A stretch of 64,000 nt of DNA from a virus, in IMG/VR virus record IMGVR_UViG_3300045995_000378; one strand, written 5' to 3'. Positions 25,848 through 60,923 of this stretch are shown in pieces (position 1 is the first letter of the stretch; every line of letters begins with the position of its first letter). The notes beneath the pieces were generated by a model, which was given only the letters and a program-made list of their open reading frames with translations, did no database searches and was not told the DNA's origin. A program made the position numbers and the translations under genes.

Positions 25848-26192
25848 TTAATCCTCCTTGTTAGTTGTTCCCATGTTTCTCATGGTATATAAATCTGTTC
25901 TCATTTCCTTGAGCGATCTGACGAAATCCCGAACACCGATACTAGCATTGCCATAATATTCCCGTCTTGCCTTCTCGACATTCTCGCCTTGGACATCCCA
26001 AACCACTCGTGGTAATTCACCTTCTTTGGATTCTTTCATGTAGGGGATTGCTATAAACCCCCTTGAAACTAGATAGGCTACTAAATTAACATCTTCAACT
26101 CCTTCCAATGTTTGTCCATTTTCTAACTCGTTCTGTGCCACATATTGCCTCCTTTTAGTAGATTTGATGGTGGTATGGTTGGCTGGCATCAC
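25848..26192 (-). CDS. hypothetical protein (114 aa)
   Basis: ORF. Confidence 0.45.
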   Translation of the reverse strand: MMPANHTTIKSTKRRQYVAQNELENGQTLEGVEDVNLVAYLVSRGFIAIPYMKESKEGELPRVVWDVQGENVEKARREYYGNASIGVRDFVRSLKEMRTDLYTMRNMGTTNKED

Positions 26193-26755
26193 ACTCCTTT
26201 CGATTCAATTACTATATCACTCTCAACTTCATTACCCCATACATCCCAACCTTCTGTTTTCTGCCGAGCAAAGAGTTCAATGCGATGTAAGTCTCCTGCA
26301 ATTTCTACTATTTTATCTCTGATAATACTTGGTTTTTTGCTATGTTCTTCAATGGGACTTTCAAATACACAATGAATACTCCGAGATTGTCTTGCCATTT
26401 TCCCCTTTAATCCTATCAAGCAAATCTCTGGATTTTGTCGTGTATAATAACCCATCCCCCAAAACAATGAATCAGCACACTTGTTTTTCTTTATCCAAGT
26501 AAAACCTAATGATTTATATTTGAATCCCCATGCCTTCATCAATTCCAACCCTTCCTGCAACCGGGGGAATGTTACCCAGAGGAATAAAATACAATTTACA
26601 TCGCAAATACTCTCAATAGGCAAATTGCATAATTCTTCTATCGAAAGCACACCATTATATCTATCCCCAAGGTTTGCTGTTCCTCTAATGCCAGTACCAC
26701 TTTCAGTTGCTTTCCACGGAGGATCGGCATAAATGATCTGATATTTTCTGTTCAT
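26189..26755 (-). CDS. MT-A70-type N6-adenine DNA methyltransferase
   Basis: IIYADPPW catalytic motif. Confidence 0.7.
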   Translation of the reverse strand: MNRKYQIIYADPPWKATESGTGIRGTANLGDRYNGVLSIEELCNLPIESICDVNCILFLWVTFPRLQEGLELMKAWGFKYKSLGFTWIKKNKCADSLFWGMGYYTRQNPEICLIGLKGKMARQSRSIHCVFESPIEEHSKKPSIIRDKIVEIAGDLHRIELFARQKTEGWDVWGNEVESDIVIESKGV

Positions 26756-41462: not shown

Positions 41463-42959
41463 CTACCTCTTCATCTCAGGTTCTTTAAGCATCTCTTCTT
41501 CGATCCGCGCCTGGGCAGTACCTTTGATTGCCAAAAAAGCTGGCCTCATGAATGGTTGCTTCTTTGAATGAGAAGTTCCGAACTCAACAAAAGAATTTGA
41601 CACAACAATACCGCTTGCAATGAAAGAATGAACATCTTTTATAGAAAGATCATATAGGCTTATGTCGCTTTCGCTGGCATCAACAATCTCTTTTTTCACA
41701 ATCTTTCTGGCCTCAAAATAGGTCATATCAACAAAACTATTCATTGAATTATTGCATTGCATATAACGCACACCAGGAATCGGGGACGGATTAATGGATT
41801 TACTGAATCGCCTGTCTGTAAAATGAATATGAACGATATCCCACCCCGGAAGAAGGTTAATGATTTCTTTATCCCTCTCAATATCTATTGCCTGATTTGA
41901 ATGCCAGAATGCACCATCGGCCTCAATAAGCATTTTCTTTTCTGGAATAGCGAAGTCTGCAAAATGATTGCCGACCTTAAATTGACGTTCATATTGCAAG
42001 CCAGTTAATCCAATCCATTCCTCAACCTGCTTTTCGGAACTCGTTTGGAACCCACGTTGAGACATGATTCTGTTGGGATGTGTTTCAGGTCTTGCTACCA
42101 TCCTTGCTGTCGTTACTTCATGCATTAGCTGCCTTGTTGAATCCGTTCTTTTTGAGCCAATATGGGGATTATTTCCTTTCACCCAATATTCATCCCTGCA
42201 TTGCACGGAGCAATATTTCTTCCCTTGGCTATCTTGCCGAGTAAACTCTTTTTGGCAATTAACACAAACTCTTTTCTTCCCTTTCCCCTTATCAGGCGAA
42301 ATCTTTTTAGGACAAAATACATAATCGCCTTCTTGTAATTCACCAGCTTTTACCCAAAATGAAACACCGTCTTTTATGGTTAATATTTTATGGTCATCAG
42401 TTACAGTTAAAGTGTGTTTTCTATCTGATCGCCACTCCACAGTTAGTCGAACAAGGTTCGGTTTTTGCTTCGCAGGAAATGAACTTTTCAAGAGAACTTC
42501 GTGTGGCATCCCGTCTTGTCCAATTACAAGATCACCTTCTTTTATTGAACTTATTGCCTTGAATCCACAGGATGTCTTGATTGTTGTCCCTGGCCCATAA
42601 ATACAAGCGTAAAATCGCGTCGCCGATCCTGCATAAACTCGAATATTCCCTGGCCGGTCGTTCTTCTCAACCTTACGAATAGTATCTCGTAGACTTCCAG
42701 CAGTACGGCCCATCTCTGTTTTTGCGATAAAGTTGACATGCTTCCCACGACCTCTACCAGTTTTGGGAGTGAACATAACATCTCGCATTACGGTCCCATA
42801 GCCTCGATAAGTAGTGCCAATTGCTACATCTTTTTTAGTGGGGCATCGCCTATAAGCATCGGCGGCGACATCGGCCATAACCTTATTCGCACCAATGATA
42901 GCAAGGTCGGCTATGTTCTGGAAGACTTCTTTAATTTTCAGGCCAACTACCCGTGCCAT
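41463..42959 (-). CDS. HK97 gp10-like tail/neck protein interrupted by an intein
   Basis: exteins join to ...TIKTS/SFVEFGTSHSKKQPFMRPAF (gp10-family vEfGT..PflrPAf motif). Confidence 0.6.
   Translation of the reverse strand: MARVVGLKIKEVFQNIADLAIIGANKVMADVAADAYRRCPTKKDVAIGTTYRGYGTVMRDVMFTPKTGRGRGKHVNFIAKTEMGRTAGSLRDTIRKVEKNDRPGNIRVYAGSATRFYACIYGPGTTIKTSCGFKAISSIKEGDLVIGQDGMPHEVLLKSSFPAKQKPNLVRLTVEWRSDRKHTLTVTDDHKILTIKDGVSFWVKAGELQEGDYVFCPKKISPDKGKGKKRVCVNCQKEFTRQDSQGKKYCSVQCRDEYWVKGNNPHIGSKRTDSTRQLMHEVTTARMVARPETHPNRIMSQRGFQTSSEKQVEEWIGLTGLQYERQFKVGNHFADFAIPEKKMLIEADGAFWHSNQAIDIERDKEIINLLPGWDIVHIHFTDRRFSKSINPSPIPGVRYMQCNNSMNSFVDMTYFEARKIVKKEIVDASESDISLYDLSIKDVHSFIASGIVVSNSFVEFGTSHSKKQPFMRPAFLAIKGTAQARIEEEMLKEPEMKR
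41595..42569 (-). mobile_element. intein (~325 aa) with embedded endonuclease domain
   Basis: Cys1 (CGFKAISS), block B TVTDDHKILT (TxxH), blocks F/G LYDLSIKDVHSFIASGIVVSN followed by Ser; internal zinc finger and GNHFADF...IEADGAFWH endonuclease-like motif. Confidence 0.7.
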
Positions 42960-44530: not shown

Positions 44531-45877
44531 TCATGTTACTTGTTCCTCGTCAAATGGTGCTGCTGAAGTCATAAATTCTCGTATCTGTTCTAACCGTTCC
44601 TCAGCATCGGGGGATAAGCCTAATGCGGTGGAATCTAATTTCCATTTTGCGCTAAATCGGTCATGAAGTATCTTGTAATTAGCACAAAATTGTTCTGATG
44701 GACTCCACGTAAACGGTCTCATACAATAATGTTCACAAAAACAATCAATTACCCACGATGTTTGGTTAGCTTCCCATGCCTGCAAGCAACAAAGTGTACC
44801 ATAAAGGTCAAATCCAGTTAATGATTCATCGAACCTAAATCCCTTCTTCATATTGACGATTATCACTGCCTCGTCAAAACAACAAGCTTCGTGGGGAAAG
44901 GAATGGATATCGGAGGTATTGAAATAGTCTGGGATTCGCATGTCGTGAAATTTGCCACAGACCAAACCACTTGCATCTTTACCTATAACTCCCGCAACAA
45001 CCCAGGACTCTGGTAACATTTTGATTTGATAACGTAGCTGGTCTACCCAACCAGATCGAAAATACATATCCTGATGTACCAGCACGCAGATATCGGCACT
45101 TTCCAATTCGGCCTTATCTAATAGTATGTTTAACCCTTTGGTAGCCGATTCAGGATTCTGGATAAACATTAGAGGACTATTGATCTGAGATTGGCGGAGT
45201 ACCATTGAAAACCTTTGGGGATTGTTAATCATGCAACCAAATACTACTTTTGGATGATTGTGATCCCATCGTTCTGGTTCGTAATAATTGAATAAGGCAT
45301 AGAGGTCAGGGCGGTAAACTATCTTCTCGCGAGCGTCTTTATAATCTACCGCTAACTCCCCGTCCCAGCAATGAGAGTTTTCATTGTGGAGGTGCCGTTT
45401 GAATAGTATACCTTTCACAAATGACTGTTGGGCGGAGATGCTACCTAATTCTACATTCTTAGGATCAGCAAATAATGTATCGGTGGGGTAATCTCGTGGT
45501 GGCTTTACCCCCTTTGGTATCCGGTGGCCGCGCTTCATGCTAATAATTACAATGTCGTCATCCATCTTGCGGATCTCGTCCATGACATTCGGTTCGTACA
45601 TATCATCATCATCAACTGTTACATAGTAGTCGTCGTCAATGATACGATAATTATTAATGAACTTATTACGCTTGAAGCATCCCGGCATCATTACCTTACA
45701 ATCAGAAGCCTTGCCGGGGATGGCAACAGGATAAATAAAGTCTTCATTGCTAAAATCAACCAGTTCATCCTCAAACATAATCGGATGCAGGATTACCCCC
45801 ATTGGCCGGTAAGCCTCAATGAGTTTATCCTTGTTCTCGGGGCGACTGAATGGGATGATAAGGTGTATTTGGTGCAT
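44531..45877 (-). CDS. two-domain glycosyltransferase-like protein (448 aa)
   Basis: N-terminal IIPFSRPEN (GT2-like), second half with DXD-like acidic motifs. Confidence 0.4.
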   Translation of the reverse strand: MHQIHLIIPFSRPENKDKLIEAYRPMGVILHPIMFEDELVDFSNEDFIYPVAIPGKASDCKVMMPGCFKRNKFINNYRIIDDDYYVTVDDDDMYEPNVMDEIRKMDDDIVIISMKRGHRIPKGVKPPRDYPTDTLFADPKNVELGSISAQQSFVKGILFKRHLHNENSHCWDGELAVDYKDAREKIVYRPDLYALFNYYEPERWDHNHPKVVFGCMINNPQRFSMVLRQSQINSPLMFIQNPESATKGLNILLDKAELESADICVLVHQDMYFRSGWVDQLRYQIKMLPESWVVAGVIGKDASGLVCGKFHDMRIPDYFNTSDIHSFPHEACCFDEAVIIVNMKKGFRFDESLTGFDLYGTLCCLQAWEANQTSWVIDCFCEHYCMRPFTWSPSEQFCANYKILHDRFSAKWKLDSTALGLSPDAEERLEQIREFMTSAAPFDEEQVT

Positions 45878-45889
45878 GTGTTTCCTTTC

Positions 45890-46684
45890 TTACTCGTTAA
45901 TTGCCTGTAATAAGGGCATGTGACATTCAATTCGTTTTCTGATTATGTCGCAATAGGTGGCATCCTTTTCAATCAGGATGTATTTTCTATTCGTGTTTAG
46001 ACAGGCCACACCGGTTGTGCCGCTACCCGCGAAAGGGTCAAGAACCGTGTCGCCTGCGTTGCTCCATGAAAGAATGTGGTCGGTGGCGAGTCGTTCAGGG
46101 AACATGGCCGGATGCTGATAAGCCTCCTTGCACGTCGTTCCTTTTCCGTATCCGGTGCTATATGCCCATATATTTTTACGCTTCCCGAAAGCCGCTATCA
46201 CCACGGGATTCCTTTTCGATGTGCTCCCGTCCGCGTTTCTGACCGTTTTGCTTGATACTGTTTTCCCTCCTTGAGAGTTTGCCCGGTCACTTATCATATA
46301 TGCCGTTTTTGGTTTTCCTTTACTCAACACAAACATATATTCAAAACACGACCAATATCGGTTATGATTAGGCTTCTGGAAAGAATCTTTTTCAAAAATC
46401 ATCGTATCGTGAAGGTTAAAACCAAACTCCTTGAAGTAAAGTGCCTGTTTGAATGATGTCCCCGTTTCGCTCCCGTTGATTGTGGCATCGCCTACTACCC
46501 AGACCACCACACCGCCGTCTTTCGTAACCCTGTAAAGTTCTTTAGCTATCCCCTCAAAATCAAAGGTAGAATTGCCGTTATAGGTTCGCAGATTGTCATA
46601 GGGCGGAGATGTCACCGTCAGGTCAATGGACTTATCGGGCAAAGTCGGCATTATGGTTAAGCAATCACCTTCGTACAGCATCAC
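45890..46684 (-). CDS. DNA methyltransferase (N4/N6 family, pfam01555-like)
   Basis: VTSPPYD and DPFAGSGTT motifs. Confidence 0.8.
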   Translation of the reverse strand: MMLYEGDCLTIMPTLPDKSIDLTVTSPPYDNLRTYNGNSTFDFEGIAKELYRVTKDGGVVVWVVGDATINGSETGTSFKQALYFKEFGFNLHDTMIFEKDSFQKPNHNRYWSCFEYMFVLSKGKPKTAYMISDRANSQGGKTVSSKTVRNADGSTSKRNPVVIAAFGKRKNIWAYSTGYGKGTTCKEAYQHPAMFPERLATDHILSWSNAGDTVLDPFAGSGTTGVACLNTNRKYILIEKDATYCDIIRKRIECHMPLLQAINE

Positions 46685-47373
46685 TTACTCCGTTGGAAGA
46701 GGGCTATGCCACAAGGATTAGTCACATTGGTTGGCGATATCCACTCATTGATAAACTTGTAATCCGCGTGAGTCTTCATCTCCCTTACTACCCTCTCAAC
46801 CTCGCCGCCATTCCACACTGAATCATGGAGGAAGAGGTATCCACCGGGGGCAATCATGGGCGCGAAGTGTACAATATCCATCATTGTCTCCATGTAGGTA
46901 TGCACAGCATCAAGAATGACAAGATCAAAAGGTGCATATTTCTTGGCACGGCGCACCGCGTTCTCGGATTGCGAATCGTCTATGATTTCAATAGTGTCAA
47001 TTTCGCGTAATATTCTACCACGATGGAAACATTGAGGATGGGAGTTATTGTCTACGATTATAATGGTTTTGGGGTGGAAATAGTGATTGAATAAGAACGT
47101 GGTTCCACCAGCTGCCGCGCCTACTTCAAGGTAGGAATTTATCTGCACATTATTGGATAGAAGGTAATGGATACAGGGACCTATTTCGTCTATAACCTGC
47201 TGGCAAAAGTTTCCACCTACGAACGAACCTTCCATCTGACCGAAGGTGTTGAAATCCTCAGTGCCGTGGGAGATTACAAATTGCTGGATTTCTTCAATAG
47301 TGGGGATAACCTGCTTAGTCGGGTTCGGTTTAAGATCGGCAATCTTGATTTTGGTTTTAACTTCTTCTTCCAT
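46681..47373 (-). CDS. class I SAM-dependent O-methyltransferase, Methyltransf_24 (CmcI/TylF-like)
   Basis: LEVGAAAGGTT motif I, IIIVDNN, DLVILDAVHTY (FIDADH-type motif). Confidence 0.55.
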   Translation of the reverse strand: MEEEVKTKIKIADLKPNPTKQVIPTIEEIQQFVISHGTEDFNTFGQMEGSFVGGNFCQQVIDEIGPCIHYLLSNNVQINSYLEVGAAAGGTTFLFNHYFHPKTIIIVDNNSHPQCFHRGRILREIDTIEIIDDSQSENAVRRAKKYAPFDLVILDAVHTYMETMMDIVHFAPMIAPGGYLFLHDSVWNGGEVERVVREMKTHADYKFINEWISPTNVTNPCGIALFQRSK

Positions 47374-47403
47374 TATTGGATAGCTCCTTTCTTTGGTTCA
47401 GGT

Positions 47404-48018
47404 TCAGCCGAATAATCTTAATTGAGCATGGCTGTCATTATTGCTTTTTATTATATTGCACTGATGGCATAAGCACCGCGTATTTCGCATAGAATGTTCT
47501 CCACCATTACTTAATGATATTATATGGTCAAGATTTGGATATAACATATGATTAACATTTTTGAAATCAGGTCTCGTTTTCTTCTTACAAATTTGGCACC
47601 TATATCCATCTCGTTTAAAAACATCAATAGGATTAAATTGTTCATATCCCACGCCAAACTTCGCAGATTTTCTCTTGTAATTTTTATTCCTCATCACAGA
47701 TTTGCCTTGTTCAGTCTGCCAATATTCCTTTTCCCATGCTGATATTTCTTCTTTGTGTGTTAGCCGATAGATTATTGCGGTCTTCTTTATTTCTTCTTTA
47801 TGTGACTGATTATACTCCTTGCTGTACGCTGCTCTTTTTTCTTTATTAGCATCGCGAAACTTTTTCTCTTGAGCTAATCGTTGTTCTCTGGTTGCTGCAC
47901 GATATGCCTTAGCCCTAACAGCAGCCTCTGCTTTATGTTCATGGTAATGTTTTCTACCATATTCCAACCGCTTCGCTATCGTAGCAGCACTATACACCAG
48001 AAAGCACCTCCGCTGCAA
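47404..48018 (-). CDS. HNH endonuclease
   Basis: CQICKKK...NLDHIISLSNGGEHSMRNTRCLCHQCN. Confidence 0.7.
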   Translation of the reverse strand: MQRRCFLVYSAATIAKRLEYGRKHYHEHKAEAAVRAKAYRAATREQRLAQEKKFRDANKEKRAAYSKEYNQSHKEEIKKTAIIYRLTHKEEISAWEKEYWQTEQGKSVMRNKNYKRKSAKFGVGYEQFNPIDVFKRDGYRCQICKKKTRPDFKNVNHMLYPNLDHIISLSNGGEHSMRNTRCLCHQCNIIKSNNDSHAQLRLFG

Positions 48019-48965: not shown

Positions 48966-49376
48966 TTACGTCCCTTCCCTTCTAAAGATACACACCATCG
49001 ATGGTCTCATTGAACCATTCTTTGAGAAACCAACAAATTTCACCCTTCCTCGCAAGAACCTAATTTCCGCCTTTCCATAAACATAATCATGGAACCATGC
49101 CGTATCAGTATTTACAAAAACCAAGAAGACAATCGTTTTTGCCTCTTTCTTTAATTCCTCATGTGCCTTTACAAGCCATTTTTTAACTTGTGAATAAGGT
49201 GGATTGACAAAAACATTGCCCCGCCATTCCATGTCAAGTCCGTTCACCATTGATTTCAAAGGGCAGGGATCAAGATCAAAATGAAATTCAGAATCAAGCT
49301 GACGATACAACCATTCAGGGGTTGCCCAATCATCCGTTACTTTTGATCCAAATAAGTCTGTTTGATTTTTATTCAC
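48966..49376 (-). CDS. dam: phage-type DNA N6-adenine methyltransferase (Dam, pfam05869-like)
   Basis: DDWATPEWLYRQL...FDLDPCP N-terminus and NPPYS motif. Confidence 0.7.
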   Translation of the reverse strand: MNKNQTDLFGSKVTDDWATPEWLYRQLDSEFHFDLDPCPLKSMVNGLDMEWRGNVFVNPPYSQVKKWLVKAHEELKKEAKTIVFLVFVNTDTAWFHDYVYGKAEIRFLRGRVKFVGFSKNGSMRPSMVCIFRREGT

Positions 49377-51424: not shown

Positions 51425-54091
51425 TTATGCTCCCGTTATCCGCGAACCGGCAGATATGTCTTTTACCCGTTCCGGCGATGATAACCCGGATGTTGTTGAT
51501 GGACTTATTATATTACTATTTTTAGTTGTTGCAAATATTACTTTTGAATTGAATGGTGATGTCGCTTGATCGGCTGATCGTATCTCCGGGTACGTGCGTG
51601 TGATGTAGAATGTGTCGCGAATAGATGTAAGATCAACATTGCTCAATGTGCCAAACATATCAATGACTAACAATAAAAATTGATCAGTTACAGTGTTGAT
51701 ATCGGATTGGATAGAATTGAACCGGTCAAAAAGAACTGAAAACTGGTCGTAGGTTAATAAAGTTTCGACTCGATTGATTAGATAAACGTCCTGCTGAATC
51801 GTGGGAATATCGGAAATGGTTAATGATTCAGATTGAGATTTGTTTATAACGTCCATCATTATTGTGATTGAATCTTGGATGGTGGACAATTCCTGCTTGA
51901 AAACTCCATAGCTTCCAAATGGAATTGAAATAGTAAAGGTATCGGAAATAGTTGAAGATTCTGATATGAAGGTATTGAATAAATCTAACATTACGGCAAT
52001 TGAATCTTTAAGTGTAGATAGTTCATGTAAAAGTAATTCAGAACTCCTCCACGATGAACTAATAGCAAATGAATCCCCAACCGTAGCGGAATCGGAATAC
52101 GAGATATTGAACAAATTTAACATTGCAGAGAAGGAATCAGACACAGTTGCATAATCTGACTTAATTGCATTATAGGCATCAAATATTATAGATAATCGTT
52201 CGGCCAATGAGGTGCTTTCAGATATTGACTGGATTAGTTGTTCATATTGAATAATTGCGGCATCCGCAGTTGTTGTCATTTCTGATTGATGTTTGACAAT
52301 TAAATCAACCATAATAGTAACAAAGTCGGTAATCGTGGCTTTATCAATATTGCTTAATTCAAATCCACCATATAAAATTGCTATGGTGAGTATATCAGCA
52401 AAAGTTGTGCGGTCTATTAAAGAAACATTGTATTGGTCAAGCATTAAACTAGCTATGTCTTGAATCGTTGAACTATCTAAAGCTGATAAATTCAAAGTAT
52501 CAAGCATTATGGCAAGCGTGTCTCGAATAGTGATTTGCTCTGTATTAGAAATATTATAAATATCCAATTGGAGGGAAAGAATATCTCGCAAGGTTAAAGA
52601 CTCTGACCTACTACTTACCAGAACATCAAACATCACGCTGAAGGTATCTTTAATTGTTGCTGTGTCAACGGAAGCTATTACGAACTGGTCAAACATTACC
52701 AATGCTATATCCCGAAGTGTGGCTTTATCTACTAATAAGGGGACAAAGGCATCTAAAATAATACTAATTACATCTTTGATAGTTGCGCGATCTGATAACG
52801 AAAGGTTAAAATCTACAAGAAATATTTCTAATTCAATTGCCAGAATATCCTTAGCTGTGGCCACTTCTATATTGTTGGCATTAAGAACATCAAGAATAAT
52901 AAATAGGGTGTCCTGGGTAGTTAACCTGTCTATGCCAACAATTATGAGTTTATCTAAAATAAGGGAAAGAACGTCGCTAACGGTAGCACTATCTATGCTT
53001 GATACGTTTAATGTATCAAGGATCAGGCTGAAAATGTCCCGGGTAGTAGCATTGTCTACATTGCTGACATTTAATTTATCGAGGATTGCAATAAAGGTAT
53101 CACTAACTGTAGCATTATCTGCCGCCGACACATTTAATTTATCAAGAATTACAGCCAAAATGTCTTGAGTAGTTGCTATGTCTTGGTTAGAAACATTGAG
53201 AATGTCAAGAATGATAGTCAATGTTTCACGAATGGTTGCTGTATCCGCATTGGCTGTAATTAGTGTATCGAACATTACTGTCAAGATGTCTTGAACAGTA
53301 GTTTTATCAACCTGAGCCGAACAAAGTACATCAAGAATCAATATGAAGATTTCTTTGATTGTTGTTTTTTCAGGCGAAACTCCCGCAGTGCTTTCCTGTA
53401 CAAAAGTGTCACCATCTTCGGTTAATAAAGAAAAGCCGTCTTCCATCAACAACTTTCCGCCCACAACACTAGAATTTATATAAATGTCAACAATAGAAGA
53501 GATTAAAGATAGAGTTGCTGTTTCAGACAAGGTTGCTTGGTCAAGATTGGATTGGTTAATAATATTGAAAAACAAAGTTGCCATATCCCGAATTGTCGCG
53601 ATATCTTGATTTGATGTTACAAGAATATCGAAAAGTAAGGTAGCCACATCTTGGATGGTAAAGTTTTCAGTACCAGATGAATTAAGTTGATCTAAGATTA
53701 GGGTGATAACATCCCGCGTTGTTACCGTGCTTGCGATTTGTGCGTTAAGAGTATCAAGGACGATCGAACTGACATCACTAATAGTAGCAGCATCAATGTT
53801 GTTAGCCTTCATAGCGTCAATGATTATGGAAACTATGTCTTGGACTGTTGCTGAATCTAATCGGGAAAGGGGGATGTCTGTAATGATTGACTGTAGGGAT
53901 ATGGTAATTATTTCCTGAATAGTGGCAAACTCATCATTATTAGCAATGTTAAGTTTATCTAAAATCAAGGTAACAATATCTTGATTCGTAATAGTCTCAT
54001 TATCTGCCACATTCAAGACATTAAGAATGACGGTTTTAATGTCTTGAATGGTTGCTTTCTCTGATTTTGCTACTGCTCGTGCTGTCGTCAT
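51425..54091 (-). CDS. 888-aa protein composed of ~35 degenerate ~20-aa tandem repeats (ATIQDIxTLILDxLNxSNxD); fibrous structural protein?
   Basis: continuous ORF; repeat visible along nearly the whole protein and as ~60-bp periodicity in the DNA. Confidence 0.6.
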   Translation of the reverse strand: MTTARAVAKSEKATIQDIKTVILNVLNVADNETITNQDIVTLILDKLNIANNDEFATIQEIITISLQSIITDIPLSRLDSATVQDIVSIIIDAMKANNIDAATISDVSSIVLDTLNAQIASTVTTRDVITLILDQLNSSGTENFTIQDVATLLFDILVTSNQDIATIRDMATLFFNIINQSNLDQATLSETATLSLISSIVDIYINSSVVGGKLLMEDGFSLLTEDGDTFVQESTAGVSPEKTTIKEIFILILDVLCSAQVDKTTVQDILTVMFDTLITANADTATIRETLTIILDILNVSNQDIATTQDILAVILDKLNVSAADNATVSDTFIAILDKLNVSNVDNATTRDIFSLILDTLNVSSIDSATVSDVLSLILDKLIIVGIDRLTTQDTLFIILDVLNANNIEVATAKDILAIELEIFLVDFNLSLSDRATIKDVISIILDAFVPLLVDKATLRDIALVMFDQFVIASVDTATIKDTFSVMFDVLVSSRSESLTLRDILSLQLDIYNISNTEQITIRDTLAIMLDTLNLSALDSSTIQDIASLMLDQYNVSLIDRTTFADILTIAILYGGFELSNIDKATITDFVTIMVDLIVKHQSEMTTTADAAIIQYEQLIQSISESTSLAERLSIIFDAYNAIKSDYATVSDSFSAMLNLFNISYSDSATVGDSFAISSSWRSSELLLHELSTLKDSIAVMLDLFNTFISESSTISDTFTISIPFGSYGVFKQELSTIQDSITIMMDVINKSQSESLTISDIPTIQQDVYLINRVETLLTYDQFSVLFDRFNSIQSDINTVTDQFLLLVIDMFGTLSNVDLTSIRDTFYITRTYPEIRSADQATSPFNSKVIFATTKNSNIISPSTTSGLSSPERVKDISAGSRITGA

Positions 54092-54092
54092 T

Positions 54093-54428
54093 TCACATCA
54101 TCCGTTCTCGTGATCCAACTTTTTCGGCTACATGAATCCTTAACACACCATCATCAATTGCTATTGGGATGTCCTCTTGGTACTTACAGCCTAGTTCTTT
54201 TAATTCGGCATAATGGGTCTCGTATCCTGACTTACAGAAACGTGGTCTACTCTCATATATCTTACATTTCCCATCTTCAGCTAATTCCTTACAAGGATGA
54301 TTAAAAAACACTGTCTGCCCTATCATCCGGCCACCCCGAACCGCAATGTGCTTTATATCATAAGCAAAACTTGAAACTGGTAAGGTTAAAAATCTGCAAC
54401 ATATCCCACATTTGGCGCAAGTACCCAT
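54093..54428 (-). CDS. YkgJ-like CxxCxxCC zinc/iron-chelating domain protein
   Basis: CAKCGICCRF motif. Confidence 0.5.
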   Translation of the reverse strand: MGTCAKCGICCRFLTLPVSSFAYDIKHIAVRGGRMIGQTVFFNHPCKELAEDGKCKIYESRPRFCKSGYETHYAELKELGCKYQEDIPIAIDDGVLRIHVAEKVGSRERMM

Positions 54429-55027
54429 TATCCTACCATCCCAAATATGTCACCCGTAGTAACATCATCTACAAACCCAAATACATTAGAAGGAATGTTG
54501 CCACCTTCCCAGTCATCGGCTGTAGAATTCAGGTAATAAATGGCGAACCCTGCGCTACCAGATGTAATGTCACTATCAACTGCTGTCACTCGTAATATAC
54601 CATTTTGAAGCAATGTGAGATTAGTTCCTACAACTCGTAATTCCCAAATATCACCAACTACCGCAGTAAGTCCGGAAGTACTTCCAATAGTAGTTTGTGT
54701 CCCGGTAATAAATTTCTGAATTAAAAAAGTGGTTCCATCATCACATCCACCCAGATAACAAGTTTTTTCTGACGCAGACTGTCTGACAATTAGCTTATGA
54801 CTCCATTCCGTCTCACTATTTTGTGCAGTAATTTTTATTTTGCTATATTGATTGTTCTCAAATACATCTAACCCCCAATACGCACCACATTCACCATTAA
54901 CTCCCAAAGAATTTCTTACTACTCCTGATAATTTTTTTAGTGGATCTGATGGGAAAGGATTAGTAACCCAATTTGTGTTTAAAGGATTCTCGTCTCCAAT
55001 AAAAGAATCAATTGCTGGTAATGTCAT
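54428..55027 (-). CDS. tail fibre/receptor-binding-like protein (start trimmed to ATG)
   Basis: track start is a TTG; beta-rich, Thr/Gly-rich. Confidence 0.35.
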   Translation of the reverse strand: MTLPAIDSFIGDENPLNTNWVTNPFPSDPLKKLSGVVRNSLGVNGECGAYWGLDVFENNQYSKIKITAQNSETEWSHKLIVRQSASEKTCYLGGCDDGTTFLIQKFITGTQTTIGSTSGLTAVVGDIWELRVVGTNLTLLQNGILRVTAVDSDITSGSAGFAIYYLNSTADDWEGGNIPSNVFGFVDDVTTGDIFGMVG

Positions 55028-55140
55028 AATTTTATCTCTCGAATAATTGCTTGTTGATAACCATTCTTTAAGATTTTGGCACTTTCTTTTTACTGAACCC
55101 AAAAAACACTAGATAAAAAGCGAATAAAATTACCATCAAA

Positions 55141-55602
55141 TTAAGCTACTACATACTCAAAGGTAATAATCGCCCGTGTTATGGTTCCATCTACGCTTGT
55201 CGTCTTCCAGCCTATGTAATTGCCAGCCGCTATACTGGCGTTCGATAATGCACCATCATCATTTGTATTAGTATCTGCTGCACCAACAATATCAGAACCG
55301 TCCACAACAGCACCGTTTAAACCATTGGAATCATATTCATACATCTGACCTGTAATAGAAATTCCACCTATACACAAAACATGAATAGCGGTAATTGTTA
55401 AATTTACAGGCGCACGCCATAAAGGACTATCTGCCGTAGCGGTTGGAGAAGTAATTACAAAGGATTTGGATAGCGCCAATGCTTTACTGAGACTAGCTAC
55501 GGACACCTTCTTGTTTGCGCCCCCAGCATCAACTTCAACTAACATATTAGTCGAAACGAGAGCGGTATCTTCAGTTAATTGACTTATTTTTTGATCAGCC
55601 AT
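55141..55602 (-). CDS. tail fibre N-terminal domain protein
   Basis: MADQKISQLTE N-terminus. Confidence 0.35.
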   Translation of the reverse strand: MADQKISQLTEDTALVSTNMLVEVDAGGANKKVSVASLSKALALSKSFVITSPTATADSPLWRAPVNLTITAIHVLCIGGISITGQMYEYDSNGLNGAVVDGSDIVGAADTNTNDDGALSNASIAAGNYIGWKTTSVDGTITRAIITFEYVVA

Positions 55603-56409
55603 TTATTTCACCTTCGCGTACTGCAATTCTTCACCGGCAATCGGGTATTGTTGACCATCCATCGCAATGTGACGGCAGAAGATATTAGTGTCACAGAGTA
55701 CCGACCACTTCTTTTTCTGGATATCCGGCCACCCAGCACGTTCGTAAATCTTCTCTTTCTTCAAGCGATTATAGAAAAAGATATCCTCTGTCCCGCCTTC
55801 GGTTTTCCACTCATTCTTTTCGGAATCATAATAGGTCCGGCTGGGAGTCTCGAATATCCGCCGGACTGTTTGCGTTCCCATCTTATATTCTTCAGAATCC
55901 TTGTAAATCACCTCAAGAATCGAACGATGGATAAGGTTGCAACCAAGCCCCATTGCCTGTAACCAAACCAAGTCTCCCATCTTCCAGTCCATGAAGTAGG
56001 ATGATCCATATTCACGGTACATTAGGGGCTCTGCTGGAACACCTTTAGTGAAGTATAACCCACCAAGAACGGGTACTGTCCCCTTCATCATCCAAGTATT
56101 AAGACGGCTAAAGGTATCATAAGGAAGAATTACATCGTGATCGAGGAACAGGAGCCATTCGAAGTCCCCTTTAATAAATGCATCAACTGCTGAATTCCGG
56201 GCATCAGCAACAAGGAATCCCATTGGAGAATACTGATCCATCCACTGGATTATTTCTACCTGAGACCAGTTTGTAGGGATACCTTGACCATAGCGTGAGA
56301 GCATCCATTCAGCACGAACAAGACCGGTAAGAGGAACGGAGATTAAAAGTCTCTTGCCATATTTAACCTGGGCATTGACTATCGTTGAATTACGCTTTAG
56401 GAGTTTCAT
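55603..56409 (-). CDS. GT-A fold glycosyltransferase (GT2-like)
   Basis: N-terminal RLLISVPLTG..., DXD motif in LFLDHDVILPYD. Confidence 0.5.
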   Translation of the reverse strand: MKLLKRNSTIVNAQVKYGKRLLISVPLTGLVRAEWMLSRYGQGIPTNWSQVEIIQWMDQYSPMGFLVADARNSAVDAFIKGDFEWLLFLDHDVILPYDTFSRLNTWMMKGTVPVLGGLYFTKGVPAEPLMYREYGSSYFMDWKMGDLVWLQAMGLGCNLIHRSILEVIYKDSEEYKMGTQTVRRIFETPSRTYYDSEKNEWKTEGGTEDIFFYNRLKKEKIYERAGWPDIQKKKWSVLCDTNIFCRHIAMDGQQYPIAGEELQYAKVK

Positions 56410-57530
56410 TAGGCACCACCCTTCCCACGAGCAATTGTCAACCCTTTTGCTTTAGGGGGAGTGTCTAATTTCTTTCTAATCACGCCAATTCCGCCCCAAC
56501 TGATATCCCGTGGATCAATGAACTCCCAGTGTTCGTATTGAGATTTGAGTTCAGCCCATAACTGGTCTACTTTGCAAGTTGGATGAGCAGGATGAAAACA
56601 AATGTCATGGAAGGCAATCAGACCACCATTACGAACTAAAGGTGAATACATGTCGAAATCAGCCTTTACGCCTTCATAAGTGTGATCACCGTCTATAAAG
56701 AGGAGGTCTATTTTATCCCCATTCAAATCCTGTTTAACACGATTCAAAGTAGATAGCTTGTGGGAATCAAATCTTAAAAAATAAAGCTTCTGTTTCCCTT
56801 TTGCAAATGATCGGAACCTTTTTTGATCCTCAATCATATACCCCCCACCAAACTCACCACCAGGAAGGTCAATGCTAAGTAATTTAGCGGCGGCAGAAGC
56901 TAACTGGCAAAGAACATAAAACACCCCACCACGAGCCGTTCCTATTTCAACAACTGTTTTTAATTCAAGCCCTCGGATGAACTCAATGAAGGCGGATAAC
57001 TCTACAGGTTTCTGCAATGCACCGATCAGCATTGCCTTTTGTGCCAAGTCGATATTAACAATTACTGTGATGTCTCGTTTCCGTAATATCGCCTCTATGT
57101 TCCCACCCCACTGCCATGAAGCATATTCAATCTTCCATGGTTTAGGTTCATACTGCTTATACATGGGGTAGGTAGGATCAAGGTGCTGAAAGGTCGCCTC
57201 GTTGATGTAGGTGATATGGGTGGGATCGCTAAAAAACCCCTGGCTATTGGCAAAAGGAGCGGATACTACTAACTGACCACCGGGAGTAAGTAGTCTCCAC
57301 ATCTCATTAAACCAGTCAAAGGTTAGCCACGGCTTGATATGCTCGATAACATGGGCGGCCTTGATCGTCAAACAAGAATCGTCGGCAAAGGGATATGGGA
57401 AGGATTCGAGGTCATGAACTATGTCCACTCCCTCGCGATGACGATAATCAATCCCAGTGAAGTTTGATTCCTTCCTGTCTCGTGCGCCAACGTCAAGCAG
57501 GATTCCGGACTTTAATTTCTTAACCGCCAT
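56409..57530 (-). CDS. two-domain SAM-dependent methyltransferase (Methyltransf_11-like plus Methyltransf_24/CmcI-like)
   Basis: N-terminal ILLDVGARDR...IEHI; C-terminal VVEIGTARGG and LLFIDGDHTYEGV. Confidence 0.5.
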   Translation of the reverse strand: MAVKKLKSGILLDVGARDRKESNFTGIDYRHREGVDIVHDLESFPYPFADDSCLTIKAAHVIEHIKPWLTFDWFNEMWRLLTPGGQLVVSAPFANSQGFFSDPTHITYINEATFQHLDPTYPMYKQYEPKPWKIEYASWQWGGNIEAILRKRDITVIVNIDLAQKAMLIGALQKPVELSAFIEFIRGLELKTVVEIGTARGGVFYVLCQLASAAAKLLSIDLPGGEFGGGYMIEDQKRFRSFAKGKQKLYFLRFDSHKLSTLNRVKQDLNGDKIDLLFIDGDHTYEGVKADFDMYSPLVRNGGLIAFHDICFHPAHPTCKVDQLWAELKSQYEHWEFIDPRDISWGGIGVIRKKLDTPPKAKGLTIARGKGGA

Positions 57531-57754
57531 TAGTTCGACCGCCCTTCTACCAATGCTGGCCGCTGTCCAGAGTAAAGGGGATCTGGTTGAGCATCCTTAA
57601 CCATAGCACCCATCTCTTTGACAAACTCAACCATCGTTTCAATTTTACAATGAACAGACAGGTCGATATTATCATTCTTGTGGATACCAATGATTATCTC
57701 CGCATCCTCACCTTCGGCCTGTCTAATCTTGTCTAACCATTGCTCTGATGTCAT
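57530..57754 (-). CDS. hypothetical protein (74 aa)
   Basis: ORF, ATGA-type coupling. Confidence 0.4.
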   Translation of the reverse strand: MTSEQWLDKIRQAEGEDAEIIIGIHKNDNIDLSVHCKIETMVEFVKEMGAMVKDAQPDPLYSGQRPALVEGRSN

Positions 57755-57767
57755 AAACTCCCTTTCT

Positions 57768-58367
57768 TTAATGGTTTAATTGGCTAACTTCTAATTCAAG
57801 TTTTTGTATCCGCGCTTCAAATGAATGTACAGATTCTTTTAAAACTCTATTTTCTTCTTCTAATCTCATAACATTCTTGCCCTTAGCAAAGTGGTTGTGG
57901 ACATGTAAGGAACGAGAAATCACTTCAAGGTTCTCTATACGATTGTCTTTTGGATCACCATTGATGTGATGAACAATTTCTTTTGGTTCCAAATATCGTC
58001 CTAATTTTTCTTCCATCACAAGACGATGTTCCATAACATAACCATGATTGCTTGCATAGGGATGATTAGGACGTTGAAGCATAGTATAATTTCCTCCGCC
58101 TCCTCCCTTACATTGTCCCCCTTGCCAATGGCTTGCTAATTCGCCAACCCACTCTTTTCTTGGTCTAATACGAATCCCATTCTTTCGCAAAATTGCCGGA
58201 ATAGAATTCCTATTTATTCTCAATTCATGTGCAACCGCTGTCATTGACATTGTTTCATACAATTTTGCTACCTGTTTGCCATCTATCACTTTTTTAACTG
58301 TTGTTACCATATATAGACCTCCTAAATTATTTTCAGAAAGTCTATCTCTATAATGCAACAAAGTCAA
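57768..58367 (-). CDS. HNH homing endonuclease with N-terminal HTH
   Basis: HGYVMEHRLVMEEKLGRYL...VHHINGDPKDNRIENLEV. Confidence 0.7.
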   Translation of the reverse strand: MTLLHYRDRLSENNLGGLYMVTTVKKVIDGKQVAKLYETMSMTAVAHELRINRNSIPAILRKNGIRIRPRKEWVGELASHWQGGQCKGGGGGNYTMLQRPNHPYASNHGYVMEHRLVMEEKLGRYLEPKEIVHHINGDPKDNRIENLEVISRSLHVHNHFAKGKNVMRLEEENRVLKESVHSFEARIQKLELEVSQLNH

Positions 58368-58393
58368 GTAGTATTTATAACTACTTGAAATTA

Positions 58394-58906
58394 TTAAGAA
58401 GTTGACGCTAAAAAAATTACGTCATACGTCAGGTTGACCGCTTGGTTACTCGCAATTGAACTTGACGCATAAGTCCCGCCGCAGAATATATGGTCAGTCG
58501 CAACACCGTACAATCCAACATTGGAAATGAGTGCAGTGGATGTTCCAGACACCCAAGTCGCCAAATATCGAGCTGTATCCCCATCGGTTGACGCTGCACG
58601 AGTAATGTAGGTTTTAGATACCGTCTTATGCAATGTAGTGGCAAGCGAGCCGGGGAGGATCGTAGCATTAGATGCGACTAATGAGGCTGACCCCAATGCC
58701 GCCAAATTGATTACCTGCGACCCTGCTGAAGATGCGAATACATAGGTCATATATTCAGTTATGCCCATCGAGGTAATCAGGTTATGCTTGTACCCACTAT
58801 CTCCCACAACTTCCCCATCTTCTACAATGTTTATCCTGAACATTCCATGCATTCCGACACTCACTGTGGGATGGGCACTTTCTACTTTTTTAGTTCTTGG
58901 CATCAT
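58394..58906 (-). CDS. hypothetical structural protein (170 aa)
   Basis: Ser/Thr/Ala-rich beta composition. Confidence 0.35.
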   Translation of the reverse strand: MMPRTKKVESAHPTVSVGMHGMFRINIVEDGEVVGDSGYKHNLITSMGITEYMTYVFASSAGSQVINLAALGSASLVASNATILPGSLATTLHKTVSKTYITRAASTDGDTARYLATWVSGTSTALISNVGLYGVATDHIFCGGTYASSSIASNQAVNLTYDVIFLASTS

Positions 58907-59236
58907 ACACCTCCGTTAATTACTTCTTGTTGGTTATAGTTGAAGTTTCCATTACTTACGTTCCTTACGTGTCGGCGCGTCATGCCGCCTTTGGCGTCCG
59001 CCGCCACTACAGTCTCTTTTCACCTTACATCTACACTATTCTTATAGATTTTTCATCTATTTATTTTAAGAACCCGCCATTTGCACATCATCTTTATTTG
59101 CCTCCTGGCGCGGCATTAAATGTTCCGAGAGAGGTGGGCGGGTATCCGTAAATTTAATCTTACTTTTTCTTCTTACCTTTAGCCTTCTGCTTCTTTAATT
59201 TCTTATCATTTGCGATTTGGTTGACCCTACCTGTTT

Positions 59237-59879: not shown

Positions 59880-60053
59880 CCCTTAATATTTAGAGGGAAT
59901 CAATCCTCTTTCGAGAAGGTAAAGATTCCAATTTGCCTTGCGTAACTGCATATTCAATGCTTGGATTTCGTGTCTACCTGCATTAACATCAACAAAGTCA
60001 TCATCTTTAGACAAGACTGTGTTTTTCCTTGTTCGCGCCCTTCGTGTCATTTC
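59880..60053 (-). CDS. small basic protein (~57 aa), not in the ORF track; approximate
   Basis: GGGGCGGGG SD then ATG. Confidence 0.25.
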
Positions 60054-60268
60054 CCCGCCCCTGCCGCCGTGAGTATGTTGGATAACGTCACCGCATCGAT
60101 CCCCTGCCCCTTGCTCGTAACTTTCGCATCACCTACGGACGCGGTAAGCTCCGTAGAGGTCGTCAGGAATCGGGTGTAGGATACCGTCACAGTGCCGTCT
60201 GGCTTCTTTTCAAAGGTGGCCGTGGCGCATCCGGTAAGCAGCAGAACTATTAAAAGTAATCGCTTCAT
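60047..60268 (-). CDS. lipoprotein (lipobox LLTGC), possible o-spanin-like component
   Basis: MKRLLLIVLLLTGCATA. Confidence 0.5.
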   Translation of the reverse strand: MKRLLLIVLLLTGCATATFEKKPDGTVTVSYTRFLTTSTELTASVGDAKVTSKGQGIDAVTLSNILTAAGAGK

Positions 60269-60276
60269 ATTCCCCC

Positions 60277-60468
60277 CTATATCGCTCCAACAAGCAAAAG
60301 CACCACAAGGATAACCAAAATCAGGCCAAAGCCGCCAAAAGGAGCGTATCCCCAGTTATGAGAATAACTGTATCCAGGATAAGAACCAAAGAGCATGACC
60401 AACAGAACGACAACGAGGATCAAACCGATTGCGCTAATTCCCTTATTATTTGATAGCCACTTCTTCAT
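60277..60468 (-). CDS. small two-transmembrane-helix membrane protein (holin/antiholin-like)
   Basis: two hydrophobic helices; adjacent to the lysozyme. Confidence 0.45.
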   Translation of the reverse strand: MKKWLSNNKGISAIGLILVVVLLVMLFGSYPGYSYSHNWGYAPFGGFGLILVILVVLLLVGAI

Positions 60469-60479
60469 AGCACACCTCC

Positions 60480-60923
60480 TTATCCTACCCTCACCATCCC
60501 CACAATTTCGGAACCACGTTCACCAACTTGTCGAAACCAGAGAGAGTCAGCCATCTTGTCAGCCGCCTTCTGCCAGTTCCCCTCTTTAATGGCCGACAGC
60601 ATCTTCTTAAACTTCCTGGCACCACCTGCCCCAATGTTCAGGACAAAATCCACGAGAGCAAACCGCCGCGCCTCTGGGTACCCGTCGAAACCGGGGTACA
60701 GGTCGCGGCACTGCCACGTTGCAGACTCAATAGACCGATCAAGCAGTTCCTCTGCCATCTCCTCGGTTATCCGCCCATAAAGGTGCATGAATGAGAGGAT
60801 TTCGGGCGGCAGGGTATTGTCATCGAAGTTGTACCCGTATCCCACTGTCTGTTTCCCCGCAGGGCAAAGGTACGGTTTCAGCCGTTTTCCCTCGTGACGG
60901 CGGATCATTTCTTTAAGATCCAT
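60480..60923 (-). CDS. endolysin, GH24 phage lysozyme
   Basis: RHEGKRLKPYLCPAGKQTVGYGYN matches the T4-lysozyme-family catalytic region. Confidence 0.7.
   Translation of the reverse strand: MDLKEMIRRHEGKRLKPYLCPAGKQTVGYGYNFDDNTLPPEILSFMHLYGRITEEMAEELLDRSIESATWQCRDLYPGFDGYPEARRFALVDFVLNIGAGGARKFKKMLSAIKEGNWQKAADKMADSLWFRQVGERGSEIVGMVRVG

Follow-up and report, generated by a model that had tools for sequence, protein, structure and literature searches.

A conserved methyltransferase–glycosyltransferase locus of an uncultured phage, proposed as a virion-glycosylation module invaded by an HNH endonuclease

The window analysed is a stretch of 64,000 nucleotides of viral DNA (IMG/VR record IMGVR_UViG_3300045995_000378). 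An initial annotation of positions 55,603 to 58,367 had described an HNH gene, a small open reading frame (ORF), a methyltransferase (MT) and a glycosyltransferase (GT) as an inserted cassette, B, that would be a second copy of a similar cassette, A. The coordinates of its four ORFs are exact, and all are on the minus strand. Together with the flanking genes the locus contains the following features, in descending coordinates.

58394..58906, minus: p170 (170 aa), first gene of the p170-MT-GT trio, outside the interval initially annotated
58364..58388, minus: hairpin with a 9-bp stem, directly 3' of the p170 stop codon
58367-58339, minus: promoter-like TTGACT-17-TAGACT, after the hairpin and upstream of the HNH start
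57768-58367, minus: HNH ORF, open back to TTG at 58367
57768..58310, minus: predicted free-standing, homing-type HNH_3 endonuclease, 180 aa from ATG at 58310
57530..57754, minus: 74-aa ORF with no assigned function
56409-57530, minus: MT gene, 373 aa, two methyltransferase domains
57036..57530, minus: MT N-domain (MTn), residues 1-165, class I SAM methyltransferase of the Methyltransf_11/23 type
56409..57035, minus: MT C-domain, residues 166-373, O-methyltransferase of the Methyltransf_24 / CmcI type
55603..56409, minus: GT, 268 aa, GT-A glycosyltransferase
55141..55602, minus: p153, small fibre-like protein, translationally adjacent to GT
54428..55102, minus: p224, virion structural protein-like (PHROG 2804 'virion structural protein', E=5.4e-5)
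54093..54428, minus: putative Zn/Fe-binding CxxCxxCC (YkgJ-type) protein (Pfam PF03692, E=1.8e-8)
51425..54091, minus: 888-aa repeat protein, candidate fibre, about 34 copies of a 21-residue repeat

Start and stop codons overlap or abut at every junction from the 74-aa ORF to p153: the stop of the 74-aa ORF overlaps the MT start (TAATG), the GT start overlaps the MT stop, and the GT stop abuts the p153 start (TAAATG). Megablast of positions 54000-59000 against GenBank phages gave no match, and the capsid gene was the only one with relatives found (43% identity to a Clostridium phage).

The GT has a Rossmann-like α/β/α GT-A fold, as had been proposed for 55603..56409. It carries a DHD motif of the DxD type at 56134-56142 and a GTED motif at 55783-55794. 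The DxD residues, D90-H91-D92, are invariant (n=44 homologues), end the central strand and align to the DED of STIV A197, the closest solved relative and best structural match of the GT; the GTED and H247 positions are invariant as well. Against PF00535 (Glycos_transf_2) the GT scores E=0.031 and 14.6 bits, under the cut-off of 23.3, and none of the 120 homologues listed for it carries a precomputed Pfam domain. Because of this sub-threshold score and these homologues without a Pfam domain, the GT is placed in a separate, unmodelled GT-A family and not in PF00535; no Pfam or NCBIfam model covering the family was found. Among 1.84 billion representatives the family comprises 90 clusters with a cut-off of E<=1e-30 and 441 with one of E<=1e-10, and tblastn of the GT against 50,697 GenBank phages, mycobacteriophages included, gave no match at E<=1e-3. 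We infer from sequence and fold that the GT would be a metal-dependent, sugar-transferring enzyme of an uncharacterised phage-specific family.

Profiles and motifs also bore out the other domain calls of the initial annotation, the HNH endonuclease and the dual methyltransferase with a FIDGDH-type Methyltransf_24 domain. The MT C-domain matches Pfam PF13578 (Methyltransf_24; E=1e-16, 62.2 bits, cut-off 26.3) and PF04989 (rhamnosyl O-methyltransferase/CmcI; E=4e-8, 33.7 bits, cut-off 23.2). It contains the sequences EIGTARGG (residues 195-202, 56925-56948) and FIDGDH (residues 278-283, 56682-56699), which from knowledge of the family would be functional motifs, the first a glycine-rich motif I and the second an acidic metal-binding motif of the DxDH type. 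The domain is predicted to be a cation-dependent O-methyltransferase. Its match to the NCBIfam rhamnosyl O-methyltransferase NF045824 is weak (E=0.002, 17.4 bits against an equivalog cut-off of 400), and since the relationship is only distant the sugar specificity is not transferable. The nearest solved relative is PDB 6G7D (E=0.002), which we take to be a mycobacterial sugar O-methyltransferase; a literature search found no paper on this entry. The C-domain is an accessory domain. It is fused to MTn in 4 of 62 related phage loci, all of this subclade, and elsewhere is a separate gene nearby.

The class I methyltransferase assignment predicted for MTn holds at family level. In the window the domain remains under the Pfam cut-offs (Methyltransf_11, 19-20.5 bits vs 21.2; Methyltransf_23, 19.5-21.8 vs 27). 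Eighteen of 26 MTn homologues match PF08241, the best of them at E=7e-6, and the MTn family profile matches the uncharacterised methyltransferase PDB 3dli (E=9.5e-5) via a common SHxVEH...DPTH pattern. Motif I of MTn in the window reads DVGARD, in which the second glycine is replaced and the GxGxG-type motif is not intact. The fused proteins have D[VI]GC[RK]DRK where the stand-alone proteins have DIGCGxNK, corresponding to a change from G to R/K in the fused clade. Given this loss of the glycine from MTn, it is more likely the C-domain that supplies methyltransferase activity in this phage. The MTn of the fused clade may be impaired or altered, and the 'dual' methyltransferase may have one active domain.

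The modelled fold of p170 is a beta-sandwich like those of tail-fibre, baseplate or lectin domains (pLDDT 69.8, moderate confidence). This fold and the PHROG 2804 match of p224 agree with the setting among tail-fibre-like genes that had been noted earlier. The p170 protein is a candidate acceptor or partner of the enzymes; tblastn of p170 against the same 50,697 GenBank phages gave no match, and Pfam, PHROG and NCBIfam searches with p170, p153 and the 74-aa ORF found nothing. The sole homologue found for the 74-aa ORF is a 70-aa ORF at the same position (43% identity, E=3e-11) in L001, one of the three closest related loci (L001, L074 and L075), and L074 has no such ORF. The N-terminal 42 aa of p153 are common to a 143-aa protein of L001, p224 is missing from the corresponding position there, and the YkgJ-type protein shares 50% identity with an L001 homologue that sits directly after the GT.

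The 888-aa protein has the repeat consensus T[IV]xD[IV]xx[IL]xLDxLN[VI]Sxx[DE]xA, with a period of 21 in 23 of 33 spacings. The repeat is seen at the protein level only; Tandem Repeats Finder detected no DNA repeats between 51000 and 59000. Pfam and NCBIfam searches assigned the protein to no family, and it is a candidate fibre and possible glycan acceptor. In L001, L006, L008, L011 and L054 a homologue is encoded downstream of the GT. A giant downstream protein was considered as a further conserved partner and rejected: homology to the 888-aa protein is sporadic, and large ORFs are ordinary in structural regions (an ORF of at least 600 aa occurs within 7 kb in 36 of 44 loci).

The constant part of the locus is the trio. 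The order p170-MTn-GT is found in 59 of the 62 related loci, with a stand-alone MTn homologue next to the GT, and these three genes are the only invariant partners across loci. They always lie among the structural genes, with the capsid gene on one side and head-closure or fibre-adaptor genes on the other. The p170-MT-GT trio is a conserved synteny across uncultured phages and not a mobile cassette. The slot of the HNH gene is filled in relatives by a sulfotransferase (E=4e-18), an NDP-sugar 4,6-dehydratase (E=2e-38), CmcI-type rhamnosyl-O-methyltransferases (E=6e-53), an extra GT2, an RmlD-like reductase, or by NeuB, a CMP-transferase and a Maf-like gene, contents that are as expected for a glycan-tailoring island. 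Fusions tie the parts together, P0271 being an MTn-GT protein and P0278, P0281 and P0290 GT2-GT proteins. In the window, the surroundings of the module yielded no gene for nucleotide-sugar synthesis.

The HNH gene differs from the trio in distribution and composition. Its product matches HNH_3 (PF13392; E=2e-13, 50.2 bits, cut-off 24.8) and HNH families of PHROG (best E, 5e-21). Its likely start is the ATG at 58310, which is preceded by an AGGAGG site, and gene callers on identical contigs also give a protein of 180 aa. The gene has no counterpart in the three closest relatives; in L001 just 15 bp separate the homologous genes. HNH homologues occupy the same slot in 7 of the 62 loci. With a GC content of 0.37 and a GC3 of 0.27, against a GC3 of 0.44-0.48 for its neighbours, it is the sole compositionally foreign gene, and the base composition of MT and GT is backbone-like. 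In other lineages the same slot or module harbours NUMOD3-HNH and NUMOD3-Vsr-like endonucleases, and LAGLIDADG inteins are found inside the GT gene. The hairpin and the promoter-like site together may mark the 5' edge of the insertion. They are only suggestive, since both are consensus matches only and a promoter and terminator scan of the region gave as many sites as expected from shuffled sequence or fewer.

Judged by these features, the HNH gene is an independent selfish gene of the homing type that appears to have been inserted recently between p170 and the downstream genes. Because it is patchy, AT-rich and one of several unrelated elements found there, it is seen to parasitise the module and not to carry it. 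It resembles the mob and seg genes of T-even phages, which are free-standing homing endonucleases, in being small, AT-rich, intergenic between conserved genes and patchy among close relatives. The HNH_3 family includes non-homing members too. The term insertion, used initially for the whole region, therefore fits the HNH gene alone and not the syntenic MT and GT with their backbone composition.

The initial annotation had taken HNH, small ORF, MT and GT as one HNH-homed unit, duplicated as cassettes A and B. At either locus an HNH gene does come first and a Methyltransf_24-containing gene next, the HNH gene is in each case richer in AT than the genes around it, and homologues of the HNH gene of B adjoin the MT gene in several phages. 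However, MT and GT occur without HNH in the three closest relatives, and about 52 of the 59 trio-bearing loci lack it; what recurs in other phages is MT-GT with p170. The composition of MT and GT and the unrelated endonucleases that take the same slot also argue against such a unit. The presumed duplication fares no better. The HNH proteins of A and B fall into separate Pfam families and have no resemblance to each other (E=0.81), and pairwise comparison of the cassettes aligns nothing but the Methyltransf_24 domains (24% over 85 aa, E=5e-6). At the position of the GT in B, cassette A carries as its third gene an N6_N4 DNA methylase. The 448-aa protein of A is unlike the GT family (hhalign probability 0.1%, no similarity), and Pfam, PHROG and NCBIfam searches with it found nothing, also when its halves were scanned separately at E<=5. 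On these comparisons cassette A is not a paralogous copy of B, and the Methyltransf_24 likeness is distant. The cassette model is largely refuted, and we regard it as very improbable.

In view of the above, we propose, with a probability of roughly 0.55, that the region is a late-expressed virion-glycosylation module invaded by a selfish HNH endonuclease. This reading is based on the GT-A fold with its invariant motifs, the synteny of the trio, the fusions and the sugar-tailoring genes of the slot, and further on the fibre- or lectin-like p170, the soluble GT, the overlapping or abutting genes and the known precedents. It supports, at the level of a proposal, the earlier idea of sugar modification of the virion, and the position of the module in the structural region is suggestive of virion proteins as the target. 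Acceptor, donor sugar, reaction order and biological benefit can be inferred as follows. The GT would transfer a sugar from a host nucleotide-sugar onto a virion surface protein during particle assembly, with p170 or the fibre-like products of the next genes downstream as candidate acceptors. The methyltransferase would then O-methylate the transferred sugar. The particle would then carry a capped, methylated glycan, with possible effects on its adsorption, stability or recognition. The HNH gene, having entered the intergenic slot after p170, would have no part in the sugar chemistry.

Phage-encoded glycosyltransferases may also act on the host. TarP is a prophage-encoded GT-A acting on the wall teichoic acid of S. 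aureus, and TarP and GtrB-type GTs are lysogenic-conversion genes directed at host envelope polymers, GtrB being membrane-anchored. GT and MT could likewise modify teichoic acid, O-antigen, capsule or S-layer glycan, with superinfection block or receptor change during infection as the effect, as with TarP. We consider this improbable. In contrast to TarP and GtrB, the GT described here is soluble, without a membrane segment, and is encoded in a late structural operon, coupled to fibre-like genes (59/62) and not in a moron or lysogeny region. Its best structural match is a viral enzyme, A197. A profile search of 185,579 reference genomes retrieved only two MAG contigs, labelled Clostridia and Gemmatales, which are likely phage contigs drawn in by binning and give no host assignment; because the family is nearly absent from these genomes, the GT is not a common prophage conversion gene.

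Less probable again is a role in DNA hypermodification, in which the GT would glycosylate a modified base and the methyltransferase would tailor it for protection from restriction. Phages do glycosylate DNA, and GTs acting on 5hmC are found in the literature. This genome contains four DNA methyltransferases, and the Methyltransf_24 gene of cassette A adjoins the N6_N4 DNA methylase. However, among the approximately 55 window ORFs scanned there is no hydroxymethylase, TET/5mYOX or other acceptor-base enzyme, the module stands beside a fibre-like protein in the structural region (59 of 62 loci), and it is accompanied by enzymes of sugar O-methyl, sulfo and NDP-sugar chemistry rather than of nucleotide metabolism.

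The conservation of p170 itself, with surface-type motifs including N-x-T/S (N158 in 71% and T160 in 79% of sequences), could be explained if MTn were a protein methyltransferase and the GT protein-specific, both modifying p170 directly with no extended glycan. That p170, MTn and GT are the sole invariant partners would fit this, as would the reported bearing of the methylation of a tail protein on mycobacteriophage infectivity (PMC13445384). We rate direct modification as unlikely, on a par with DNA hypermodification, because the CmcI/rhamnosyl-O-methyltransferase domains, the sulfotransferase and the NDP-sugar enzymes point to chemistry on sugars, and the GT2-GT fusions imply that the glycan contains more than one sugar.

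If the module does act on virions, the known systems offer partial parallels. To our knowledge, virion glycosylation by a phage or virus is experimentally documented in few systems, namely mycobacteriophages, chloroviruses and probably STIV. A197 of STIV is an essential viral GT-A thought to glycosylate the STIV capsid protein. Unlike the present phage, STIV is an archaeal, non-tailed virus, and A197 has no associated methyltransferase or fibre-like partner; with 197 aa against 268 aa for the GT, its similarity is too weak to assign both to one family by sequence. In PBCV-1, A064R and A061L provide two sequential methyltransferase activities that yield 2,3-di-O-methyl-rhamnose at the tip of the capsid glycan. 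The combination of a virus-encoded soluble GT-A (DxD, with Mn2+ there) and SAM methyltransferases makes A064R/A061L the best parallel in function for a GT-A paired with a dual methyltransferase. PBCV-1 is, however, a giant virus of eukaryotic algae, its domain order is GT-GT-MT in one protein, and its major capsid protein bears the N-glycan that serves as acceptor.

Closer in virion type are the tailed mycobacteriophages. [quoted passage not shown] These phages share with the module a phage-encoded methyltransferase and GT, and their virion-protein target is the function proposed here. They differ in that the GT of the module found no match there, and that the present locus has a p170-MT-GT trio in a fibre/neck region, a single GT-A of a separate family and a fused two-domain methyltransferase.

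A wider reading can be considered with less confidence. The trio may represent a widespread, undescribed system for glycosylation and methylation of fibre or receptor-binding proteins, in which tailoring diversifies the surface and which, through its weight for phage fitness, serves homing endonucleases and inteins as a safe harbour; this is possible, and we hold it as tentative. The tailoring envisaged would comprise methyl, sulfate, 6-deoxy or nonulosonic sugars, depending on the lineage. If true, virion glycosylation would be general and evolvable in environmental phages and not peculiar to actinobacteriophages and giant viruses. Should the module decorate virions, surface glycans would be common and diversifying among environmental phages, with consequences for host recognition, particle stability and the evasion of immunity or defence. 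What emerges from the analysis is a phage-specific GT-A family, locked in a trio and ringed by variable sugar-tailoring genes. For annotation, the lesson is that an HNH gene beside an enzyme pair does not amount to a mobile cassette. Three endonuclease types and LAGLIDADG inteins converge on this one conserved block, and such convergence can flag genes that are important to the phage.

The window is a tailed-phage genome of metagenomic origin in which nearly all genes lie on the minus strand, and contigs identical to it are found in the Logan assemblies SRR35489444 and SRR35489506 and as a 71-kb JGI contig. An ORF scan recovered the four genes of cassette B at exactly the coordinates of the initial annotation:

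57768-58367, minus strand, HNH gene (Pfam HNH_3, E=2e-13)
57530-57754, minus strand, small ORF (74 aa)
56409-57530, minus strand, methyltransferase MT (373 aa)
55603-56409, minus strand, GT-A glycosyltransferase GT (268 aa)

The true start of the HNH gene is probably the ATG at 58310, which follows an AGGAGG site and gives a protein of 180 aa; gene callers assigned this same length on the identical contigs. In the series small ORF, MT, GT and p153, a fibre-like gene, the stop codon of one gene overlaps or abuts the start of the next.

The genomic neighborhood of GT was compared over 63 IMG/VR loci collected with a GT profile, together with other contigs, by searching their ORFs with the window proteins. 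Synteny was counted for the 62 loci with enough upstream sequence, considering neighbors within 5 kb of GT. GT is preceded in 59 of the 62 by a stand-alone homolog of the N-terminal methyltransferase domain of MT (MTn) and, farther away, by a homolog of the 170-aa fibre/lectin-like protein p170; these genes mostly follow one another directly, only a few bases apart. This synteny identifies the p170-MTn-GT trio as the conserved unit, which reaches past the block originally delimited, since p170 lies at 58394-58906 on the minus strand. The GT family has at least 297 homologous clusters, and among the matches listed none is named or carries a Pfam domain. Among 1.84 billion proteins, the number of its cluster representatives is 90 at a cut-off of E<=1e-30 and rises to 441 at E<=1e-10. 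Pfam and NCBIfam hold no model for it, the PHROG match of GT is only marginal, and neither GT nor p170 has a homolog among 50,697 GenBank phages.

The HNH gene has a different history. It is missing in the three closest relatives, L001, L074 and L075, whose GTs are 80%, 83% and 84% identical to that of the window; in L001 only 15 bp separate the p170 homolog from the small ORF. It is also the only compositionally foreign gene (GC 0.37, GC3 0.27), as p170, the small ORF, MT and GT have a GC of 0.44-0.46 and a GC3 of 0.44-0.48, against window averages of 0.43 and 0.42. The same slot holds homologs of this HNH gene in 7 of 62 loci, scattered over the family. Other elements occur in related phages as follows:

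L044 and L073, at or near the HNH slot, NUMOD3+HNH
L053, at or near the HNH slot, NUMOD3+DUF559/Vsr-like
L063 (9989-11980), P0275, P0284, P0285 and P0291, LAGLIDADG inteins within the GT gene

The patchy presence, the foreign composition and the unrelated elements in or near the same slot argue that the HNH gene is a selfish element that invaded a conserved module. The initial annotation had described the block as a mosaic insertion and suggested a mobile cassette, possibly spread by HNH homing. This model is largely refuted and we regard it as very improbable: the HNH gene is the invader rather than the vehicle of a cassette, and the trio is kept in 59 of 62 loci. Inteins usually occupy conserved active-site regions of important genes. 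Going by the query ranges that matched, the inteins entered GT at different points, one after about residue 52 and another after about residues 159-164. At least four homing-type elements are present in the window, namely the two HNH genes, a GIY-YIG domain protein (13455-13823, minus strand, E=1.7e-5) and an intein in a 498-aa protein (41463-42959, minus strand) that combines Hint and intein-splicing domains with an inserted DUF559/Vsr-like endonuclease.

The block had also been read as a second copy of cassette A, the other HNH-methyltransferase gene block:

44531-48018, minus strand, cassette A: HNH (PF01844/HNH_5, AT-rich), then a 230-aa Methyltransf_24/CmcI-like protein, an N6_N4 DNA methylase and a 448-aa protein

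Pairwise comparison contradicts this. The two HNH proteins belong to separate Pfam families and show no similarity (E=0.81), the Methyltransf_24 domains give no more than a weak alignment (24% over 85 residues, E=5e-6), and the position of GT is filled in cassette A by the DNA methylase. The 448-aa protein gave no match in a family search and, by hhalign, none to the GT family (probability 0.1%). A weak match to the GT-A-like Majastridin (E=0.006) lies in its C-terminal half, and cassette A may represent a second glycan module, not homologous to that of cassette B. The likeness of the two blocks is one of gene types and not of duplication. A GT-A-like pattern, LIIPFSRPEN...VDDDD, is present in the N-terminal half of this 448-aa protein.

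The two-domain architecture proposed for MT was confirmed in its C-terminal half, where a Methyltransf_24/CmcI domain is confidently detected (E=1e-16 and 4e-8) with FIDGDH at residues 278-283. The N-terminal half of the window protein scores slightly under the Pfam thresholds. Of its homologs, 18 of 26 match PF08241, and the family profile matches methyltransferase 3dli (E=9.5e-5), so that at the family level this domain is predicted to be a class I methyltransferase. Motif I is intact (DIGCG) in the stand-alone MTn proteins. In the fused clade it reads D[VI]GC[R/K]D, and DVGARD in the window, where R17 falls in this motif; the SAM loop has thus lost its second glycine, while other conserved positions (H60, E63-H64, DPTH) are kept. 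The fused N-domain may thus be altered or inactive, with catalysis by the fused CmcI-type domain, and two methylations by the 'dual' enzyme are possible but not assured. Fusion of Methyltransf_24 to MTn occurs in only 4 of 62 loci, all close relatives of the window; elsewhere Methyltransf_24 is a separate gene or missing.

Several features suggest where the module acts. It always lies within the structural region, following the capsid gene and preceding fibre-adaptor, head-closure and tail-completion genes. In relatives, the p170-GT slot and the flanks of GT form a variable sugar-enzyme island with the following genes:

island in relatives, sulfotransferase (E=4e-18)
island in relatives, NDP-sugar 4,6-dehydratase (E=2e-38)
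island in relatives, CmcI-type rhamnosyl O-methyltransferases (E=6e-53)
island in relatives, extra GT2, RmlD-like reductase, NeuB, CMP-sugar synthetase (CMP-transferase) and Maf-like gene

This repertoire suggests that the glycan chemistry differs by lineage and would include sulfation. Individual examples beside GT are a sulfotransferase (L013, 9204-9968), an NDP-sugar 4,6-dehydratase (L014, 4329-5339) and NeuB/CMP-transferase/Maf-like genes for nonulosonic acid (L006, 1-900 and 14428-15333). Fusions occur between MTn and GT (P0271) and between a canonical GT2 and GT (P0278, P0281, P0290). GT has no membrane segment, and its family is nearly missing from reference genomes (two MAG contigs among 185,579 genomes). 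Taken together, the location, codon overlap, sugar-enzyme island, fusions and a soluble GT that is rare in reference genomes speak for glycan chemistry taking place on the virion. Modification of the host envelope, of the TarP or Gtr type, would be consistent with the GT fold and the sugar enzymes, but we consider it unlikely, since neither a soluble enzyme encoded in a late structural operon nor a family nearly missing from bacterial genomes agrees well with it.

Glycosylation of DNA is another alternative, in view of four DNA methyltransferase genes in the window:

48966-49376, minus strand, Dam-type
45890-46684, minus strand, N6_N4
12315-13061, minus strand, N6_N4
26189-26755, minus strand, MT-A70

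These predicted genes indicate a heavy investment in anti-restriction methylation within 64 kb. However, a scan of about 55 ORFs found no hydroxymethylase or dioxygenase able to equip a base with an acceptor for sugar, and the companions of the module are not nucleotide-metabolism genes, which makes a role in DNA glycosylation quite improbable.

The proposal of virion glycosylation and sugar O-methylation is drawn from the glycan-chemistry evidence and from experimentally supported precedents; virus-encoded glycosyltransferases and methyltransferases acting on virion glycans are already known as a type of system. According to Freeman 2023, as reported in PMC11600133, an O-methyltransferase and three GTs modify the capsid as well as the tail tube of cluster O mycobacteriophages. 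In the chlorovirus PBCV-1, a GT-A and two sequential methyltransferases cap the capsid glycan with di-O-methyl-rhamnose, and the essential A197 protein of STIV is thought to glycosylate the coat protein. No earlier description appears to exist of this GT-A family, of the obligate trio that it forms with MTn and p170, or of the way in which it attracts homing elements. In the proposed mechanism, GT would transfer a sugar from a host-derived nucleotide-sugar to a virion surface protein, with p170 or the neighboring fibre-like proteins as candidate acceptors, after which the methyltransferase would O-methylate the transferred sugar. We infer this function entirely from fold, motifs and context, and the same holds for acceptor, donor and any benefit of the modification. 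In a variant to which we give a low probability, residues of p170 would themselves be methylated and glycosylated and would carry no extended glycan.

Downstream of GT lies an 888-aa protein (51425-54091, minus strand) in which a 21-residue repeat, T[IV]xD[IV]xx[IL]xLDxLN[VI]Sxx[DE]xA, recurs in about 34 copies that make up the protein. The residues I, L, S, T and D are abundant, many repeats contain an N-x-S motif, and the protein belongs to no family in Pfam or NCBIfam. The gene shows no tandem repeat at the DNA level, so the copies have diverged; several relatives have homologs of 470-1488 aa downstream of GT. The GC3 of the fibre-like genes p153 and p224 and the repeat protein (54428-55602 and 51425-54091, minus strand) is 0.24-0.32, under the 0.44-0.48 of the MT/GT/p170 core, and L001 lacks p153 and p224 at the matching position. 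Fibre genes may be exchanged horizontally, independent of the enzyme core. A CxxCxxCC protein (54093-54428, minus strand; PF03692, YkgJ-type Zn/Fe-binding) sits between fibre-like genes, and its L001 homolog is directly 3' of GT. Upstream of p170, within the structural region, a lysis cassette (59883-60923, minus strand) contains a lysozyme (60480-60923), a DUF3309 membrane protein of 63 aa, a putative lipoprotein of 73 aa and an ORF of 55 aa, all on the minus strand; its position between capsid and fibre genes is unusual.
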